Below, one piece after another: positions 1 to 9,840 of a stretch of 22,986 nucleotides of DNA. The translations under genes and the position numbers were made by a program. Every line of letters starts with the position of its first letter. Position 1 is the first letter of the stretch. Below the pieces are notes generated by a model. The model saw only the letters and a program-made list of their open reading frames with translations. It was not told the DNA's origin and did not search any database. The DNA is from a virus (taxonomy: Duplodnaviria; Heunggongvirae; Uroviricota; Caudoviricetes), in IMG/VR virus record IMGVR_UViG_2519899565_000007; one strand, given 5' to 3'.

Positions 1-1526
1 TCGTTGCCATTAACTCTGACGCTCATACCGCCCTCAGCGTAAGCTGGCGTAAGTAAAACTCCACCGGCTCCGTTACCATAGATACGGTTGTTGATTATAT
101 TAATATTATTGCAGTGGCCACCAACATTAATACCGTTACCGGTGTTTTGAAACAATCGGCACCCAATGATGTCAATGGAGTAACCGTTAACTAATATTGC
201 GTTGTTATTAGTATTAACCACGTCAATATTTTCTATTTTAATGTGGTTGGCTTCAGTAAGACTGATGCCGTTAGCTGCGTAGCCATTTCCGTCAAGACCA
301 AAGTCCCTGAACTCGCAGAACGTAATTACTCCATCTTGTTGCGTGATTATCGGTGCCGCTGTACCCGTAGAGAAAATTCTGGACTGATATGCGCCAGCAC
401 CTCGTATCATGGTGACAGTATTCTTAATCGTAATACCAGGGTCAACAATGAACACCCCCTCTGGTATAACAATCTCAGTTGGCAACGTAGCATCATCAAT
501 AGCCTTCTGAAACGCCGCTTTGTTCTGAGAACCGGTGTTGCCAACTTTAAATCCGTAGTCTGAAAGTGTCACCAAATCTACAGAAAGTTTTTCATATACC
601 GACATCGAGACGGCATCATTAAATTTAGGGGTATATGTAACTATTGAGGAGCCTTTATCTGTCTCTTGACTAATCAGGTCGCTCCGCAACGATGCATCCC
701 CTACAGATACCCAGGCACCAAGGGAAACCCCACCTGTTGATTCAGGGGTTGAATTCTCAGGAACATCTTTTGGTAAAGATCCATCCCAACGGTAGTACTC
801 GCCATTTCCATCAGGACGTTTCCAGTGAAGTGCCTGAAATCTAGTTGTTATTGAAGCACCATCCTGAAACGAATCAATAAGGGAATATCCCCATAACCCA
901 CTACTTTCAGGATCAAGAAGAAGCGGTGATCCAGAATTATCAAAACTCAGTGTTTTATTCTTTCTCCCATCCGCATCAGGTAACTCATTTATAAACGATT
1001 CAGGTACTCTCAAGCTTCTGCTTAGGCTGGCACCAGAAAGAATATCAACATAATCTTTCGTTGCTGCGTCTTTCGGCCTGGATGGGGCACGAAGATTACG
1101 AATATAGTTGTCCATTGCGTCGTAATAGTTAGCAGCAAATGACGGCTTACGTAGCGCCAGGCTAAACCAACTACGAACCTGCTGAATCAACATTGTCAAC
1201 TTATCAAGCGCATCCTCATGCACCTCAGCAAAGAACTTACCCTGGTTACGGAGATCCGTTTCCTGCGTAACCGGCAATTCACGTGATATGGAAATCTGGT
1301 AACCATTAGCAAGAGCTGTTGCCAGTATTACATTACCACCTACATACCCACCTGCGCCGGTTACTGTGTAGTCAGTATCTAGCGTCAGAACAGTGATGTT
1401 ATCGTTCAGGTCTACAACCTGGACTACCAGATCAGACTTCTTAAAAATCCTGAAGGTATAATGGAATGTCGTTGTAACACCGTTACCGGTGTATTCGTTG
1501 TGGTCAACTTCGGTTGAGACCGTCAT
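1..1526 (-). CDS. Tailspike / tail fibre, 3' end beyond window; T7 gp17-like N-terminal adaptor domain followed by beta-helix-like repeats
   Basis: ATG at 1526-1524 with GGAG 7 nt upstream; frame open to position 1 (checked triplets 3-299, no stops). N-terminus MTVSTEVDHNEYTGNGVTTTFHYTFRIF...VLTLDTDYTV has the pattern of T7 gp17 N-terminus as recalled; Asn/Gly-rich repeats downstream (NTGNGINVGG, NNRIYGNGAGG) suggest a parallel beta-helix. Confidence 0.75.
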   Translation of the reverse strand, partial: MTVSTEVDHNEYTGNGVTTTFHYTFRIFKKSDLVVQVVDLNDNITVLTLDTDYTVTGAGGYVGGNVILATALANGYQISISRELPVTQETDLRNQGKFFAEVHEDALDKLTMLIQQVRSWFSLALRKPSFAANYYDAMDNYIRNLRAPSRPKDAATKDYVDILSGASLSRSLRVPESFINELPDADGRKNKTLSFDNSGSPLLLDPESSGLWGYSLIDSFQDGASITTRFQALHWKRPDGNGEYYRWDGSLPKDVPENSTPESTGGVSLGAWVSVGDASLRSDLISQETDKGSSIVTYTPKFNDAVSMSVYEKLSVDLVTLSDYGFKVGNTGSQNKAAFQKAIDDATLPTEIVIPEGVFIVDPGITIKNTVTMIRGAGAYQSRIFSTGTAAPIITQQDGVITFCEFRDFGLDGNGYAANGISLTEANHIKIENIDVVNTNNNAILVNGYSIDIIGCRLFQNTGNGINVGGHCNNINIINNRIYGNGAGGVLLTPAYAEGGMSVRVNGN

Positions 1527-1682: not shown

Positions 1683-1702
1683 TACTGTATATTTATACAG
1701 TT
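1683..1702 (+). promoter_or_regulatory. LexA (SOS) box TACTGTATATTTATACAGTT, immediately after a -35-like TTGATA (1679-1684)
   Basis: CTGT-N8-ACAG with AT-rich centre; 18/20 match to the E. coli consensus TACTGTATATATATACAGTA. Arrangement resembles the recA promoter (TTGATA followed directly by the LexA box). The -10 is weak (TATTGC at 1702-1707). Sits 20 bp upstream of the ATG at 1722. Confidence 0.75.
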
Positions 1703-1721: not shown

Positions 1722-1979
1722 ATGCAGCAGTATCACTATCCACTGGAAGACGGATTTACCGAAAGGATTCACACGCCGGGAGGCGTCAGGTCACTGGTGG
1801 AGGGATCGCACTTGATGAAATTACTCCGGGATCTCGATAAGGATGGATTTAATGTCGATGGCCCACTTGCCGAACTGACTGCACTGATTAACTACGTCAC
1901 CAGCTCACAGATGTCTATGCAGGATCTGCAAACACATCTCGACTATTGTGCCGAACAATTACGAAAACAAACCACATAA
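1722..1979 (+). CDS. Hypothetical 85-aa protein, putatively SOS-regulated; antisense to the structural operon
   Basis: ORF track 1704..1979 starts at TTG; in-frame ATG at 1722 has GGAG at 1710-1713. Soluble, no recognisable family. Confidence 0.55.
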   Translation: MQQYHYPLEDGFTERIHTPGGVRSLVEGSHLMKLLRDLDKDGFNVDGPLAELTALINYVTSSQMSMQDLQTHLDYCAEQLRKQTT

Positions 1980-2001
1980 AGAAAAGGCCGCGAAAGCGGC
2001 C
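1976..2001 (-). terminator. Intrinsic terminator (GGCCGC-GAAA-GCGGCC) with a T-tract on the minus strand
   Basis: 6-bp GC stem 1986-1991/1996-2001 with GAAA loop; minus-strand continuation TTTTCTTTAT (rc of 1976-1985). Follows the stop of the 98-aa membrane gene and sits at the convergent junction with the plus-strand 85-aa gene. Confidence 0.65.
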
Positions 2002-2002
2002 T

Positions 2003-2014
2003 GTGACATGTCAC
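2003..2014. repeat. 12-bp palindrome GTGACATGTCAC (copy a), overlapping the stop codon of the minus-strand gene 2011..2307
   Basis: Exact palindrome; the same 12-mer recurs at 21825-21836 and with one mismatch at 16521-16532 and 19560-19571. Confidence 0.7.
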
Positions 2015-2307
2015 GTCCCTTTTCTGAATGATAGCCATTCGAAAAATGATGACATTCCACCGCAGACAATAGCAAAGATGATCCCACCAAAGAAGAGAAG
2101 GCCAGCCTGCCACCACTCCCACCGCCATACATCCACAGCGCCAACCATACCAACAATCGCTCCAACAAATGGAATATAGCTCACGATGAAAGCAATGGGG
2201 GCTGCAATTATCCAGTGCAATCCCCACCATGATTCAAGCCCAGCCATAATTGCTGCCAACTGAAAAAGACCAACGACGATATAAACAATGAATCCTATAG
2301 CTTGCAT
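2011..2307 (-). CDS. Small hydrophobic membrane protein (98 aa, about 3 predicted TM segments)
   Basis: ATG at 2307 with AGGTGA 5 nt upstream; sequence dominated by hydrophobic stretches (FIVYIVVGLFQLAAIMAGL, IIAAPIAFIVSYIPFVGAIVGMVGAV, LLFFGGIIFAIVCGG). Confidence 0.6.
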   Translation of the reverse strand: MQAIGFIVYIVVGLFQLAAIMAGLESWWGLHWIIAAPIAFIVSYIPFVGAIVGMVGAVDVWRWEWWQAGLLFFGGIIFAIVCGGMSSFFEWLSFRKGT

Positions 2308-2319
2308 GTAGTCACCTAT

Positions 2320-2493
2320 TTACCCAGTAAAAATAAGAGGCCTCCCCTCAATAAGGCTTGCAACAAGAACTACTCCCTGCACAACAAAGATGAACCAGCA
2401 AATAGCTTGAGTCTGAGGGTTAAGAAAATATTTGTAGCGGTCAATAAATAACAATCCACCAGAAATTATCACACTCAAAATAATTAAAAACAC
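2320..2493 (-). CDS. Possible small membrane protein (57 aa, GTG start, 2 hydrophobic segments)
   Basis: GTG at 2493 four nt after AAGGAAG, directly after the upstream stop; translation VFLIILSVIISGGLLFIDRYKYFLNPQTQAICWFIFVVQGVVLVASLIEGRPLIFTG. Not in the ORF track (below length cut-off). Confidence 0.3.
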   Translation of the reverse strand: MFLIILSVIISGGLLFIDRYKYFLNPQTQAICWFIFVVQGVVLVASLIEGRPLIFTG

Positions 2494-2502
2494 AACACTT
2501 CC

Positions 2503-4977
2503 TTATTGCGGAGTGACATCCTGAGGTCGCCACCAGTATGTCTGGTTAAACTCTTTCTTCGAACGTTGCTCCATTTTACGCAAATAGCCTGGTGAAAAAT
2601 ACTCCTGCATCTGGTTAAAGATCATGTGATCGAGAGCCGCCTTCAAGTACCAGAGATTCGCACCAGGCATCAAACCTTTCCCCAGCTTCACCAGATCACC
2701 ACCAGTCTGCTCACTCTTCCCTTCCACAGCATTTAACGGTATGCCCTGAGCAATCTTCACTACGTCATCAACCAGACCAGCTACCGGGCCAAGCATCGAC
2801 GCCAGCGCGCCGCTTCCGTACCTAGTGTGATCTGACAATAAAAAGTCACCGTAAAGGCCAAGACCACCACCTTTCAGTAGAGCACCAAGCCAGAATTTTG
2901 CGGCATCTTCTCCTGTCATCTCTCGAGGATTACGACCAGACGCAAGGTCGTTAAGTTGCTGCGACAAAGCGCCAAGAATGGTCGTACTGGCAATAAACGT
3001 CGCAATATATGCCGCACGCCCACCAGCAGACGGCATACCCATAGCGCGTGACCAGTGACGCATAACAACCGAGATAGGGAACGATTTAAACAGGAAAACA
3101 CTTCTCGTTAATTCACCTTTCCATGTTCCACGCTGAATACCAGAACCGGTTATCAGTTGCTCACGTGCTCCCGGTGTAATAACAGCCATATCAACTTCTT
3201 CAGTTACGGCACCGAGCAGTTTACGCATTGCCTCAAATTTCACGCGTTCAGGCTCACCAAGATGTTTAACTGCTGAATCAGGGATACGCATAATGCTTTC
3301 CGGTGTCAGCATCGTATTATTACCGTTCCCCCAGTCCTCCTGTTGCGCCAGCTTCCATACGCTCCAGTCTGTGTCAGTAATCCCTTTACTTTTCAGGATA
3401 CGAAAATCAGAGTCATCGAGGCTACGAAGGTCTGGTGTCCGTGACACTACTTCTCCCAGGCTTCCCATCATGGTTACGCCATAGGCGCGCTTGTGCGCAT
3501 CTGACCATGCTGTAAGCCCACTGGCACGCATTACCGCCGTTGCCGCCCAACGAGACACAGACGGCCCCATATTATCCATCGCCCAGCGGTTAACGCTGCC
3601 AAGTAGAGATTCCATCGCCAGGCCAGCGCGGCGCGCCCGCGCAAGCTCAGTACGGTTCGTTGGGTCCATAGCTTCAAGCTGGTTGCGAAATAACTGGTTC
3701 ATTGGAAGGTTGGTAACCTTCGCAGACAGATACATGGTTCCAAGATCAGAGAACGATGACAGCAACGCGGATCCGAGTCTGCTGGCAACCAGCCAGTTGC
3801 GGATATTGTCAGACCATCGCGCGATGTGCGGATTCGCTACAGGCTGTGTTTTTCCGGAAATAAAGTTGTACAAGTTCTCTGTTTTGTTCGCCAGACGCTC
3901 GACGCTACCGGTTTTACTCGGGTTAGCTGTTGCCGTTTCTGCCTTAACCTGATCAAGAAGAGAGCGGAAAACATGATCGGGGTTTGGGCCATATGTTTCC
4001 ACCAGCGCAATATCTTTACTGATACCTTCCAGGTGACCGACCATGATTTCCCATAGAGAGCGATCGCCATAAAGTTGCTGATATTGCAGATAGGAATCTG
4101 CATCTTTGAAATGTATCTGTCGTGATGCATTACCACGGTTAGCACGTACGCCGGAAATTCGCATTCCGGTATCAGTAAGCTTATTCAGCCCACCAGTAGC
4201 GATCGTGTTATAAGCCTCTCCAAGAAATGCAGACAACTCGGCATCGTTCATCAGTTGTCCATCGGCTCGGGTATAATATTTGCGATCCAGCTTACCTATA
4301 ACATCGCTAACCCATTTATCTTTTGATACCGCCCCAACCTTTTCCATAGAATGATGTTGAGGGATCCCCCAGTTTTCGAGATAGCCAATGTCCCCACCAG
4401 CATCATTAAACCGGCGGCGCAGTAGATCTGTCACTTCTCTCCACGCCTTAGCACCTTTTCTTGCTTTAGCATTGCCAGTATTTTGCCCTCGCATTTCATA
4501 TACCAGGTCACGCACGCCCGCTTCATCTTCAAACAGGCCAAAAAAGCGAGGATCGACTGCTTCAAATGCCTCCTGCAATTGACTCAATGCATAATCACGA
4601 GTGGCTTTTGTTCTGGATTCAACAGAGAGGAAATTCGATTTACCGTCTGCATTAAAAGCAATAGTACGGTTAAGAGCGCCAAGTTTCCCATCAGCCCCTT
4701 GATAGCTATTGATAAATTTATCCAATCTCTGACGTGCGGCTATAGTGAGGGCCACACGACGTTTCTTTAATGCCGCTTCTCGCTGTAATTCTTCAGATGC
4801 CAATTGTGCTGCACGATACAACCGTTCTGATTCGGAAAGTTGTCGCCACGACATCGGGTCATCACGAGCAATGGAGCGCATATTTCGATAAATGCGGTCT
4901 TCAATGTTCTGTATTTCTCGCGCCGTTAACGTGCGCTGCGCCGCCTGCTGGACCGCTTGTATACATTCCTGTCTCAT
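2503..4977 (-). CDS. Internal virion / ejection protein (824 aa), gp16-like by position
   Basis: Long ORF, ATG at 4977, five nt after the upstream stop; position equivalent to T7 internal core proteins; C-terminal hydrophobic segment. Confidence 0.7.
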   Translation of the reverse strand: MRQECIQAVQQAAQRTLTAREIQNIEDRIYRNMRSIARDDPMSWRQLSESERLYRAAQLASEELQREAALKKRRVALTIAARQRLDKFINSYQGADGKLGALNRTIAFNADGKSNFLSVESRTKATRDYALSQLQEAFEAVDPRFFGLFEDEAGVRDLVYEMRGQNTGNAKARKGAKAWREVTDLLRRRFNDAGGDIGYLENWGIPQHHSMEKVGAVSKDKWVSDVIGKLDRKYYTRADGQLMNDAELSAFLGEAYNTIATGGLNKLTDTGMRISGVRANRGNASRQIHFKDADSYLQYQQLYGDRSLWEIMVGHLEGISKDIALVETYGPNPDHVFRSLLDQVKAETATANPSKTGSVERLANKTENLYNFISGKTQPVANPHIARWSDNIRNWLVASRLGSALLSSFSDLGTMYLSAKVTNLPMNQLFRNQLEAMDPTNRTELARARRAGLAMESLLGSVNRWAMDNMGPSVSRWAATAVMRASGLTAWSDAHKRAYGVTMMGSLGEVVSRTPDLRSLDDSDFRILKSKGITDTDWSVWKLAQQEDWGNGNNTMLTPESIMRIPDSAVKHLGEPERVKFEAMRKLLGAVTEEVDMAVITPGAREQLITGSGIQRGTWKGELTRSVFLFKSFPISVVMRHWSRAMGMPSAGGRAAYIATFIASTTILGALSQQLNDLASGRNPREMTGEDAAKFWLGALLKGGGLGLYGDFLLSDHTRYGSGALASMLGPVAGLVDDVVKIAQGIPLNAVEGKSEQTGGDLVKLGKGLMPGANLWYLKAALDHMIFNQMQEYFSPGYLRKMEQRSKKEFNQTYWWRPQDVTPQ

Positions 4978-6785: not shown

Positions 6786-9295
6786 TGCGGAATATCTCCG
6801 GAGAATCTCTGACGCTTCTGTGTCAGATCAAGAACAACGGGAGAACCATCATCTTTTAGCAGATAACCAGTACCAAGTTTCACCAGGTACTGACTATCGC
6901 CGTAACTTTGCAAACCATACTGACCAGGCGGTGTTTTTATCCCTGTGCCAACAACTTGTTCATTCCAAGCCTGATTAACCTGCTTATCGAATTGCTCTGC
7001 AGACATTCCCCACGGCAAAAGAACATTCCCCATTCCGTTATAGTCATGCACGCCACCTGTAGCTACGTTAACAGCCTGTTTCCAGATATCATTGTCAATT
7101 TCGCCTGATACCACGCCTTTTTTCGCCATCACACCAGCGTAATAGTCCTTTGCGATCTCGTATGCCATTGATGCCCCCTGAGCATCACCAGCAAATGCAT
7201 CCTTCACCATGTCAGAAAACTCAAGGCGAAGATCAGCATCTTTAGGCATCGGAATACCTTTCGCGTCATCAGTACCTTTACGAGCCGCCGCGCCAGCAAG
7301 AATTGTCTGCGCAGCGGTTTCTGGAGACACGGAAACATCCGGATTAAACCAGTTTTTTTCTGCCAAAATACCACCTGGCTTATCCATCAGTATCCCGGCA
7401 ACGGCAGCAGATGGAGCGTTGGCACTGATCTGCTGTAGTGCTGACATATACACCTGCCCACCACCAGTGCTCTGCCTGATGGTATCGAGATATGCTGCCT
7501 GTTGGGAAACGGGCGCATCACGAAAGAAAACACCGATCTGATTGGCCTCGTCTTTGGAAAAGAACGTCAGTGGAGTGCCATATGACTTAGCAAGGTCACT
7601 AACCTGAGCAGCACGCAAGGCAACGCTCTGTCCAAAGTTATCCTTATTGCTCATGTCGATAGGCTTTGCCTGTCCGGCGGCAAGAGAGAACTGTACAGGA
7701 TCAGCCTGTCGCTGCTTTATCACCTGACTTGCAGCCGACACAACGTTGTCATAAAGAGCGGCTCGTGCCGCATAACCCTCCCCTGTCTCACCAGTATCCG
7801 GGCGTAATTGCTCAACATATGCTGTAATGCTGCTTGTCGGCATGTTGCGGAAAGAGCCTATATACTGTCCGGCGATTTGCGTATTTCTGAACTCGGTATA
7901 TCGCAGGTTTCCTTCTCTTACTCCATAAGCTGCAATAAAATCAGCCTCACCAGGTGGGTTAGGAAATTCAACGCCACGCATATACGCAGCTGTCGCATCG
8001 CGAACCTGGCTGTCAATCATCGTTTTATATTCAGCCTGCTGCTGCCGACGCAGTTGATCCGCCTGTCGCATAAAACTTGCCTGCGCCTCAGGAGATGCCG
8101 CATCGAATGCTGCATTACCGGTATAGCGTTTGGTGTTGGTTGGAATTGTTGATAAACCAAGTGCTGCACTGACACCAGCAGTTAACTGCTGATCACTGTA
8201 TGGCTGGCTACCGTTCTCATGATGGATAATGGCTGCACAAAGCGCCTTCAGGGTATCAGGATTAGATGCATCGAGAGGCTCATCAGCAGAAACGCCAAGT
8301 TGTTCGCACACTGCTTTGATATACGACATAGTGTCATTTTTATCAGCAGGCGGTGCCCAGCGATTAATTATCTCGCTGACGGTATCAATACCCTGCCTCT
8401 GATACGACATCAGGTTCCGCCCTAATGCACGAATCCCGTGTTCAGGTGTTTCGAATTTAGCAAATCGACCATCATCACCGGTCTGGCCTACCCACGGATT
8501 AGTTTTGCTGTATTCGAGATTTCCTGGGTTATTGTTGCGTATGCCACGGGCACGCTCGGAAGAGTCACTATCTGCTACAGCACGGCGAGCTCCAGCAGCA
8601 GTATCACTTAACTCGCCATTACTTTGGATGAATGCGGTCGCATTGTTTGCCGACCACTGGGACAATGCAGCATCAGCAACCTTCTCTTTAAACTCGATTT
8701 TCTTGGCATGGATTTGCTCGTTGCTCCAGCCATGTGCAACACCGTACTCCTCAATTTGCTGGAAAGTTTGCTTGTTAGCCAATACGTATGCGGCGTTGTC
8801 GCCATACAATGCTGCGGCATTTTTACCATTGTTCAGCAGTGTCGCCTGAAACTGGCCTTCTTCGTAGGCATTAATTTGCCCTATCTCGTGTCGCCCGGCC
8901 TGCGTAGTGAACTGAATGCGCTGCTGCTGCGCCTGCTGCATGAAAGCATTACGAGCCTGTTCATCCGGCAGCGACATAGCCAGTTGTTCGACCTGAGCAT
9001 CAAACTGCTGCGTATACTCATGGCCTTTTCCAATAGCATTTTTCCCTTTCAGGTTAAGCAATCCTGTTTCAGGATTATTCAGCAGATCGCTGCTTATCTG
9101 ACTGAGGTTAAGAGATGCCTCCTGAGCCAGAGCGATATTGGCACGCTGTTTTGCCTGCCCCAAAACATCAATTGCCTCTGTCCCTGCCCGAACAAAAGCA
9201 TCACCAATACCTTGCTGAGAAAACGTCTGCAAGCCTGCTGACTGAACTCCACGACTCTCAACCTGACGTCCGGATACTGTTGGTACGACTGGCAT
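6782..9295 (-). CDS. Internal virion protein (837 aa), gp15-like by position; candidate globular domain at residues ~273-400 of the ORF-track protein (nt 8171-8554)
   Basis: ORF track begins at GTG 9370; ATG at 9295 has CCGGAGGATTATA upstream and overlaps the upstream stop (TAATG). Conserved-looking block ARGIRNNNPGNLEYSKTNPWVGQ... Confidence 0.7.
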   Translation of the reverse strand: MPVVPTVSGRQVESRGVQSAGLQTFSQQGIGDAFVRAGTEAIDVLGQAKQRANIALAQEASLNLSQISSDLLNNPETGLLNLKGKNAIGKGHEYTQQFDAQVEQLAMSLPDEQARNAFMQQAQQQRIQFTTQAGRHEIGQINAYEEGQFQATLLNNGKNAAALYGDNAAYVLANKQTFQQIEEYGVAHGWSNEQIHAKKIEFKEKVADAALSQWSANNATAFIQSNGELSDTAAGARRAVADSDSSERARGIRNNNPGNLEYSKTNPWVGQTGDDGRFAKFETPEHGIRALGRNLMSYQRQGIDTVSEIINRWAPPADKNDTMSYIKAVCEQLGVSADEPLDASNPDTLKALCAAIIHHENGSQPYSDQQLTAGVSAALGLSTIPTNTKRYTGNAAFDAASPEAQASFMRQADQLRRQQQAEYKTMIDSQVRDATAAYMRGVEFPNPPGEADFIAAYGVREGNLRYTEFRNTQIAGQYIGSFRNMPTSSITAYVEQLRPDTGETGEGYAARAALYDNVVSAASQVIKQRQADPVQFSLAAGQAKPIDMSNKDNFGQSVALRAAQVSDLAKSYGTPLTFFSKDEANQIGVFFRDAPVSQQAAYLDTIRQSTGGGQVYMSALQQISANAPSAAVAGILMDKPGGILAEKNWFNPDVSVSPETAAQTILAGAAARKGTDDAKGIPMPKDADLRLEFSDMVKDAFAGDAQGASMAYEIAKDYYAGVMAKKGVVSGEIDNDIWKQAVNVATGGVHDYNGMGNVLLPWGMSAEQFDKQVNQAWNEQVVGTGIKTPPGQYGLQSYGDSQYLVKLGTGYLLKDDGSPVVLDLTQKRQRFSGDIPQ

Positions 9296-9840
9296 TATAA
9301 TCCTCCGGGTAATCTGGTTCCTGCTGCTGCCCCGATTGGCGCAGGAGTGCTTTGAGTAAACGGACTCCACGTCCCACCAAACATCTGGTACGCACCGTAT
9401 GCCTTCAGAGGCGCAGTGAGCAATGTTGTTGCTGCTCCCACATTCCCCTGTTTACGGGCTGAACTGGCTTCTGCTTTATAGTTGGCAGCCTGAACCTGAT
9501 AACCGTAAGCCTCGCGTTGCGCGTTATTCACCGTCGTCAGCGAATCAAGAGCGCCAAACTGGGCAGTGTCGCCAAATATATCCAGCGCGTTACCTGTAGA
9601 TAAATCAGCGCCGGTAGCCCCCATTGTCGCCGCCTGTGTACCAAGCCGCTGTCGGGTCTCTCTGCGTCGTTGCTCAGCTTCAGCGTTACCTCTGTTTATT
9701 GCATCATTTGCCTGAGCTGTGGCTATATCTGCGTTCGCTTCTGCAACCTTCGAGGCATACTTTCCCTGTTGGTACTGGGTGTATGCCTGAATGCCACTCA
9801 TGGCGAGCATTGCGCCACCAGCAATAACCGGATCGCACAT
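9295..9840 (-). CDS. Internal virion protein (181 aa), gp14-like by position
   Basis: ATG at 9840 overlapping the upstream stop (TAATG); Ala/Gln-rich. Confidence 0.6.
   Translation of the reverse strand: MCDPVIAGGAMLAMSGIQAYTQYQQGKYASKVAEANADIATAQANDAINRGNAEAEQRRRETRQRLGTQAATMGATGADLSTGNALDIFGDTAQFGALDSLTTVNNAQREAYGYQVQAANYKAEASSARKQGNVGAATTLLTAPLKAYGAYQMFGGTWSPFTQSTPAPIGAAAGTRLPGGL

Follow-up and report, generated by a model that had tools for sequence, protein, structure and literature searches.

The closest described systems to the genes analysed here are known from the phages P22 and HK97. The sieA gene of P22 is located between genes 16 and 9, and its inner-membrane product prevents the injection of DNA; SieA-escape mutations map to the ejection proteins gp16 and gp20 (PMC10883804). 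In HK97, the small inner-membrane exclusion protein gp15 is encoded in the tail operon beside the tape-measure gene, and non-phage bacterial homologues of it exist (PMC3594210). Here, we analysed two small adjacent genes, encoding proteins of 57 and 98 amino acids (aa), in the virus record IMGVR_UViG_2519899565_000007; the whole stretch of 22,986 nucleotides is called the window below. The window represents the late region of a temperate, epsilon15/phiV10-like podophage of the genus Uetakevirus, whose structural genes are on the minus strand, and the two small genes follow the last ejection-protein gene. Both were found to be real, constrained genes for hydrophobic helical proteins. By analogy to P22 and HK97, and with a probability of about 0.35, we propose that they are a two-gene cassette of accessory inner-membrane proteins in a movable cargo slot that may act as superinfection-exclusion factors. 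The two genes and their signals are as follows.

2320-2493, minus strand: gene for the 57-aa membrane protein with two predicted helices and the conserved loop motif DRYKYFL (GTG start at 2493-2491, TAA stop at 2322-2320; from the listing of open reading frames)
2498-2504, minus strand: ribosome-binding site AAGGAAG of the 57-aa gene, overlapping the TAA (2505-2503) of the preceding 824-aa gene (read from the sequence)
2011-2307, minus strand: gene for the 98-aa membrane protein, which has three hydrophobic segments, loops rich in Trp and a basic tail at the C-terminus (ATG start at 2307-2305; phrog_3075; RefSeq WP_001147904.1)
2312-2317, minus strand: ribosome-binding site AGGTGA of the 98-aa gene, within the junction TAAATAGGTGACTACATG of the two genes (read from the sequence)

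Two small genes for proteins with several transmembrane (TM) segments had been placed at 2011-2493 by the initial annotation, which was made from the letters alone, and both open reading frames (ORFs) were confirmed as genes, including the 57-aa ORF that had been called a possible one. According to Nei-Gojobori counts both are under purifying selection: the ratio of nonsynonymous to synonymous substitution rates (dN/dS) amounted to 0.19-0.28 for the 57-aa gene, and for the 98-aa gene to 0.02 against the copy of Klebsiella phage BUCT711 and 0.16 against the Cronobacter copy. The 57-aa family comprises 13 clusters from Escherichia, Citrobacter, Klebsiella, Salmonella and Enterobacter with lengths of 56-58 aa and identities of 67-98%, and homologues of the 98-aa protein keep a roughly equal length down to about 45% identity. 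The GTG of the 57-aa ORF is located 4 nt after AAGGAAG; in relatives, the corresponding signals are AAGGGGG and TTG (phage BUCT711) or AAGGAGG and GTG (Salmonella prophage, locus L015), and AAGGATG with ATG is found at the equivalent position of phiV10, where it opens a gene for an unrelated 46-aa protein. AGGTGA lies just past the TAA of the 57-aa ORF and 4 nt upstream of the ATG of the 98-aa gene, and the complete 18-nt junction is invariant among the aligned copies from E. coli, Klebsiella and IMG/VR. The low dN/dS values, the conserved lengths within the families and the conserved starts and ribosome-binding sites demonstrate that both ORFs are genes. Other ORFs that overlap them, at 1943-2230 (minus), 1946-2179 (plus), 1959-2168 (minus), 2302-2451 (plus) and 2441-2533 (minus), were discounted as by-products of the conserved pair. 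A terminator-like hairpin in the 3' end of the 57-aa ORF (2334-2350, minus strand) is probably a chance structure, since it is no stabler than shuffled sequences (z +1.3) and is absent in relatives. The 57-aa ORF carries no RefSeq/PGAP annotation in E. coli E2865 (NZ_AP018808.1; locus L025, 3341-3514) and is called in other NCBI records; its small size and GTG start probably explain the missing call. The DNA around both genes is 98-99% identical to the Escherichia phages YDC107_2, HEMP4 and phiv142-3, and the segment 1980-2510 (531 bp) occurs with 100% identity in prophages of many E. coli chromosomes. This segment was found in 222 of 5,426 complete genomes, and its carriers include O26 and other pathogenic or livestock strains.

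About three TM segments had been expected for the 98-aa protein and two for the 57-aa protein. Indeed, Kyte-Doolittle hydropathy revealed three hydrophobic segments in the former (residues 1-26, 29-60 and 65-90) and two in the latter (1-20 and 27-51), and AlphaFold2 predicted helices at residues 2-28, 32-42, 46-59 and 65-97 of the 98-aa protein (pLDDT, the predicted local distance difference test, 90.9) and at 2-19 and 26-49 of the 57-aa protein (pLDDT 76.7). The number of crossings may need a refinement for the larger protein: its kinked middle segment, in which Pro46 stands between the helices 32-42 and 46-59, may form a re-entrant hairpin instead of a third crossing, with both termini in the cytoplasm. 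This N-in/C-in topology is predicted by the positive-inside rule from a charge census of the family, according to which the C-terminal tail is strongly basic (mean of 2.4 Lys/Arg), the N-terminal tail is mildly basic and the two Trp-rich loops are net-acidic. Fold comparison of the 98-aa model gave matches that were all non-significant, and among them K+-channel pore domains recur (TREK-1, KCNQ2, MthK, TASK3, NaK, GsuK, KtrB). These recurring matches would fit a layout of TM helix, re-entrant helix and TM helix and are no evidence by themselves.

The 98-aa protein matched phrog_3075, a PHROG that carries no annotated function, with E = 1.6e-54 over residues 1-98 of the 98-position profile; NCBIfam and PADLOC gave no match to it, and Pfam none above threshold. 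A profile search of 1.84 billion representative proteins returned 749 clusters at E <= 1e-3 and 320 at E <= 1e-10, each cluster being a representative at 50% identity. Hosts of the family are Enterobacterales, Aeromonas, Microvirga, Desulfovibrio, Mailhella and Thermoflexus, and in 99 diverse sequences the residues Q16, A19, P46, G49, G53, A57, W61, W63 and F72 are conserved to at least 90%. A Pfam scan of these 99 members and 20 fusion proteins revealed no family that covers the 98-aa domain; DUF4112 matched 4 of the 99 (best E 5e-4). Some members carry an N-terminal zinc ribbon fusion, and one automatic "MntP" label was discarded as spurious. Distant homologues were found beside integrase and Bro-N genes, in an island that also carries H-NS and an integrase and on a plasmid-like contig; at such sites they are stand-alone genes with long upstream spacers, and in eight distant genome loci no counterpart of the 824-aa ejection-protein gene, which resembles gp17 of epsilon15 (gp17-type gene), was nearby. 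In Alphaproteobacteria, a DUF6804-like membrane protein is encoded directly after a gene of the family (loci L019/L020, 6364-6654; L109, 4308-4646; L108, 4276-5526), and the two may be a conserved pair. The 57-aa protein had no match in Pfam, PHROG, NCBIfam or PADLOC.

The position of the 98-aa gene was then compared in 81 loci with close relatives of it, 80 from IMG/VR and one Klebsiella genome. A gp17-type gene is located at most 556 bp upstream on the same strand in 80 of them, and the remaining locus holds too little upstream sequence. The 57-aa gene intervenes in 65 of these loci and is absent from the other 15, of which nine were read: they encode signal-peptide proteins of 102-175 aa or a two-TM protein of either 54 or 103 aa instead. 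In Cronobacter prophages a 99-aa homologue of the 98-aa protein starts 1 nt past an 849-aa gene, and in a T7-like Salmonella prophage a 94-aa homologue is found 36 nt past an 833-aa gene. The 98-aa gene is absent from phiV10, SPN1S and epsilon15, and no homologue of the 57-aa protein was detected there; the place of the latter is taken by an unrelated 46-aa two-TM protein in phiV10 and SPN1S and by the unrelated 64-aa two-TM protein gp18 in epsilon15. For a census of this slot we counted ORFs of at least 40 aa that start between -25 and +150 nt from the gp17 stop and encode at least one TM segment (hydropathy heuristic) or a lipobox. Such an ORF was present in 76 of 78 IMG/VR loci with an epsilon15-gp17-type gene (L116-L195), 67 qualifying by a TM segment and nine by a lipobox, compared to 6% at 800 random positions inside ejection-protein genes. 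At least eight unrelated families occupy the slot after the epsilon15-gp17-type gene, including four-TM proteins of 126-129 aa and a lipoprotein of 126-128 aa. The pattern is weak in the T7-like Salmonella group, where an ORF for a membrane protein or lipoprotein occupies the slot in just 7 of 24 loci and most hold a soluble 122-aa protein instead.

Some 98-aa genes 94-100% identical to the copy in the window follow gp17 variants only 24-27% identical to the 824-aa protein. Since near-identical copies follow such divergent variants, the 98-aa gene moves horizontally and to the same landing place, which speaks against a specific pairing with the ejection protein encoded next to it. Co-evolution of the small genes with that protein was ruled out for the same reason, identical small genes being paired with very different ejection proteins. 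A mosaic joint is visible in the IMG/VR loci L063, L075-L079, L090 and others, where near-identical 98-aa genes stand behind the 849-aa gp17 type of Cronobacter, which is about 24% identical to the 824-aa protein.

The region from the ejection genes to the tailspike is a general cargo zone: in relatives it holds HicAB, the YafO toxin, Bro-N and Ant antirepressors, a DUF2335 protein and lipoproteins. Toxin-antitoxin genes were located there in Cronobacter (HicA with a DUF1902 protein; locus L007, 8362-8820) and in phage TL-2011b (YafO family toxin; locus L024, 5525-6070). The predicted lipoprotein of 126-128 aa (lipobox LVGC or LTGC) is encoded after a 58-aa gene in a Salmonella Muenchen prophage (locus L015, 6418-6804) and directly after the gp17-type gene in an IMG/VR locus (L194); it had no Pfam match and recalls the exclusion lipoproteins Cor and Llp in position and type. 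Taken as a pattern, the slot looks like movable envelope cargo that is positionally analogous to sieA of P22 and gene 15 of HK97.

Both small genes occupy the SieA-type position in a temperate podophage, between the last ejection gene and the tailspike. Like the 98-aa protein, SieA is a small inner-membrane protein with about three predicted TM segments, and its gene lies beside antirepressor genes (mnt/arc/ant in P22); only some of the related phages carry sieA, and several sequence types exist at the one position. SieA differs in size (162-164 aa versus 98 aa) and has no detectable homology. HK97 gp15 is likewise a small inner-membrane protein encoded in a late structural operon beside the gene of a DNA-conduit protein, and it has bacterial homologues outside prophages, as does the 98-aa family; HK97 is a siphophage, though, and the sequence families are unrelated (no Pfam match, including YebO). 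gp15 is described as a moron and is expressed from the prophage; morons are of the type with its own promoter and terminator. Of the features of morons, presence or absence among similar phages was found here, as the 98-aa gene is missing from phiV10, SPN1S and epsilon15 and the content of the slot varies; of the promoter and terminator (in the sense of PMC3594210), a terminator is present and a promoter was not found in our scans. The 57-aa protein is most comparable to gp18 of epsilon15 and to p21 of phiV10 (SPN1S_0020), which are also encoded directly after the gp17-type gene with an equal arrangement of the ribosome-binding site and also form a two-helix hairpin with a short basic loop; these proteins have no known function either and differ in family, with hhalign probabilities of 0.4-0.5%.

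Superinfection exclusion had been one of three candidate roles in the initial annotation, and it became our best guess because of the membrane character of both proteins, the position of the slot, its non-homologous replacements, the horizontal movement of the 98-aa gene and the parallels to the immI region of P22 and to HK97 gp15. In the proposed mechanism the small proteins would be made together with the late proteins, possibly also at a low level in the lysogen, would insert into the inner membrane and would disturb the DNA conduit that an incoming podophage builds across the envelope with its ejection proteins, as SieA of P22 and gp15 of HK97 do. Infected or lysogenic cells would thereby be protected, and progeny would be kept from wasting their DNA on sister cells. 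Late co-expression would fit the idea that exclusion also protects the progeny (bioRxiv 10.1101/2024.03.05.583538). In a narrower form of this proposal, which we consider improbable, the 98-aa protein would represent an undescribed, widespread pore-loop-like family (TM helix, re-entrant hairpin and TM helix with cytoplasmic termini) that podophages have recruited, along with at least eight unrelated families of envelope proteins, to block or gate the DNA conduit of competitors, and the slot would be a diversity-generating exclusion locus of epsilon15-like phages.

A number of observations weigh against a role in exclusion. While position and diverse envelope content of the slot speak for it, the homology search proposed with the initial annotation, against holin and Sie/Imm-like families, gave no match above threshold. 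In particular, the comparison with P22 SieA by hhalign gave a probability of 0.2%, the SieA motif FxRYPxEAxxFNK is absent from both translations, neither protein had a PADLOC match at E <= 1, and no exclusion or defence family of Pfam or NCBIfam (Imm_superinfect, SieB, YebO etc.) was matched. In P22, sieA faces the late operon in convergent orientation and has a promoter of its own; by contrast, the 57-aa and 98-aa genes point the same way as the late operon and are joined to it, with gaps of 9 nt and 12 nt, respectively, to the preceding gene, and no sigma-70-like promoter with at least 9 of 12 matching positions was found upstream of them; a single 8/12 match is located inside the 57-aa ORF. 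Since no promoter was found and the genes are tightly joined to the late operon in the same orientation, expression in the lysogen is unsupported. The very strong conservation of the 98-aa gene and its broad non-phage distribution fit a general membrane function equally well; the extension of the family to Alphaproteobacteria, Desulfovibrio and Chloroflexota and its fusions to DUF805, RDD and MORN also agree with such a function. Finally, no member of the 98-aa family is named and none has a known exclusion phenotype, "hypothetical protein" being the entry in every source (cluster names and two large homology searches), and literature searches on the accession, the PHROG id, the locus tags and the small proteins of epsilon15 and phiV10 turned up no mention of either protein.

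The genes around the cassette were assigned as follows. In the direction of the minus strand, the order is a gene of 823 aa, one of 155 aa, the T7_gp14 family gene and genes of 862, 600 and 824 aa, which bears out the earlier placement of the small genes at the end of the ejection-protein operon; downstream of the 824-aa gene, the 57-aa and 98-aa genes are followed by a hairpin, by an 85-aa gene that is convergent and on the plus strand, and by the tailspike gene.

9295-9840, minus strand: T7_gp14 family gene, upstream among the ejection/internal-virion genes (family match)
2503-4977, minus strand: 824-aa gene, epsilon15 gp17-like, the last of the ejection/internal virion protein genes and the largest (match to phrog_684 "virion structural protein" with E = 0; also annotated in phiV10 and SPN1S)
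1975-2002, minus strand: intrinsic terminator that closes the late structural/ejection operon, its hairpin common to the convergent 85-aa gene (stem-loop 1985-2002 and U-tract 1975-1984; terminator scan and RNA folding)
1722-1979, plus strand: convergent 85-aa gene, epsilon15 gp19-like, phrog_450 (resembles the C-terminal part of anti-repressors)
1683-1702, plus strand: LexA box TACTGTATATTTATACAGTT ahead of the 85-aa gene (pattern search; one mismatch to the 20-nt LexA-type pattern, with 0.12 matches expected by chance in the window)
1-1526, minus strand: N-terminal part of the tailspike gene, which runs off the window (start codon 1526-1524; DNA 93% identical to the beginning of the tail fibre gene of phiV10, and RefSeq annotation of the E. 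coli prophage that is 100% identical over 1980-2510)

The stem of the terminator has 7 bp, AGGCCGC/GCGGCCU, and is followed by UUUUCUUUAU in the minus direction. The hairpin folds with -19 kcal/mol and z -2.3 on the minus strand; the plus strand gives z -3.4 and has a weak U-tract. The hairpin lies 6 nt past the stop of the 85-aa gene. Together with the LexA box, this agrees with the earlier claim of a terminator common to the small genes and an SOS-regulated neighbour. The 85-aa gene was listed as a 91-aa ORF with a TTG start and probably starts at the ATG at 1722, matching the RefSeq annotation. It is related to gp19 of epsilon15, p24 of phiV10 and the C-terminal part of anti-repressors (phrog_450, phrog_1760), and the LexA box and the likeness to anti-repressors suggest a small SOS-induced antirepressor. 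The GC content of the 57-aa gene (0.37-0.39) differs modestly from that of the 824-aa gene (about 0.45-0.62), a difference confined to the 57-aa gene, as the 98-aa gene has 0.44-0.52. In the prophage of E. coli E2865 (locus L026, 9268-9369), a gtr-type O-antigen glucosylation module beside the tailspike is truncated, with an intact gtrA and a glycosyltransferase pseudogene fragment.

Apart from exclusion, the breadth of the 98-aa family raises the question whether its phage-borne copy is a widespread bacterial module, for example an ion-conducting or membrane-homeostasis protein, that serves as a fitness gene in lysogenic conversion, the 57-aa gene being independent cargo. The 749 clusters from several phyla and non-phage settings favour this explanation, as do the fusions to DUF805, RDD, MORN and zinc ribbon domains and the dN/dS of 0.02, which makes the gene far better conserved than the adjoining ejection-protein gene and unlike one for a fast-evolving arms-race protein. 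The charge census, which fits the N-in/C-in topology with a re-entrant hairpin, and the many K+-channel pore domains among the noise-level fold matches would also agree with it. It leaves unexplained, however, why the gene is placed constantly right behind the last ejection gene (80 of the 81 close-relative loci) and why that slot should be kept for envelope proteins from many unrelated families, and we consider it rather doubtful. A function as late helper, in which the small proteins are made together with the ejection proteins and shield the inner membrane of the producing cell (self-immunity) or aid the handling of the ejection proteins before packaging, would agree with several features: the ribosome-binding site overlaps the 824-aa stop codon and the co-oriented genes leave no room for a promoter, the Cronobacter homologue starts 1 nt after the 849-aa gene, and a small TM protein occupies the position in phiV10, SPN1S and epsilon15, with 76 of 78 other loci qualifying in the census. 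Such a helper is nevertheless unlikely. The occupants of the slot are non-homologous and some of them are lipoproteins or secreted proteins, the T7-like Salmonella group has a membrane or lipoprotein ORF in 7 of 24 loci, homologues exist with no ejection-protein gene nearby, and the ejection proteins encoded ahead of identical 98-aa genes share just about 25% identity, so that no partner specificity is apparent. Moreover, phiV10, epsilon15 and SPN1S are viable without the 98-aa gene or a detectable 57-aa homologue, and the idea of membrane-targeting partners of the ejection proteins, the second of the three candidate roles, is weakened by such viable relatives without one or both genes.

The third candidate role, as holin or antiholin, is disfavoured. 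A class I holin such as lambda S105 has about 100 aa, three hydrophobic segments and a basic C-terminus and is expressed late, and hydropathy and charge census revealed the same size, TM segments and charged C-terminus in the 98-aa protein; these features are not holin-specific. Expression from the late operon would suit a lysis function, and Phage_holin_5_2 was matched weakly (E = 0.027), but with 15.2 bits against a cut-off of 29.2; neither protein had a Pfam holin match above threshold. This likeness was seen in 1 of the 99 family members and was rejected as a chance match. The 98-aa protein thus differs from class I holins in lacking family membership, and its family in the wide non-phage distribution, on plasmid-like contigs, in islands and as fusions with non-lysis membrane domains, and probably in topology, as the charge census speaks against the N-out/C-in arrangement of class I. 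No endolysin is encoded in the window, as the initial annotation had stated for the vicinity of the genes. A full lysis cassette is encoded about 3.7 kb beyond the tailspike in the E. coli prophage that matches 1980-2510 at 100% identity; it comprises a putative holin and a holin (Phage_holin_8 and Phage_holin_3_7), a GH19 endolysin and a DUF2514 spanin, and phiV10 and epsilon15 have the same layout. Profile comparison with the two holin-family proteins of this prophage revealed no similarity to the small proteins. Because the identical prophage holds a complete cassette elsewhere, a primary role of the small proteins in lysis is unlikely; that the 98-aa protein as holin- or antiholin-like protein and the 57-aa protein as its partner together tune the lysis time is highly improbable. 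The probability beyond exclusion and these three alternatives is left for something not considered.

In sum, the sequences were already present in databases as hypothetical proteins; new are the constraint demonstrated for both ORFs, the 98-aa domain as a large unnamed family with a possibly re-entrant topology, and the slot reserved for diverse envelope proteins. An exclusion cassette at this place is a good and cheaply testable lead that would not surprise a specialist; if the proteins do nothing measurable, they are ordinary hypothetical phage cargo. The 98-aa domain is a conserved family without name, Pfam model or structure, and the discovery of a function for it would provide annotation for hundreds of protein clusters. 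An envelope protein gene after the last ejection-protein gene offers a simple finder of candidate exclusion genes. Should the cassette exclude phages, the epsilon15/phiV10 group would have its first described exclusion determinant, and a second, non-homologous system would be at hand for studying an inner-membrane block of the podophage ejection conduit, which so far has been addressed only via SieA of P22.

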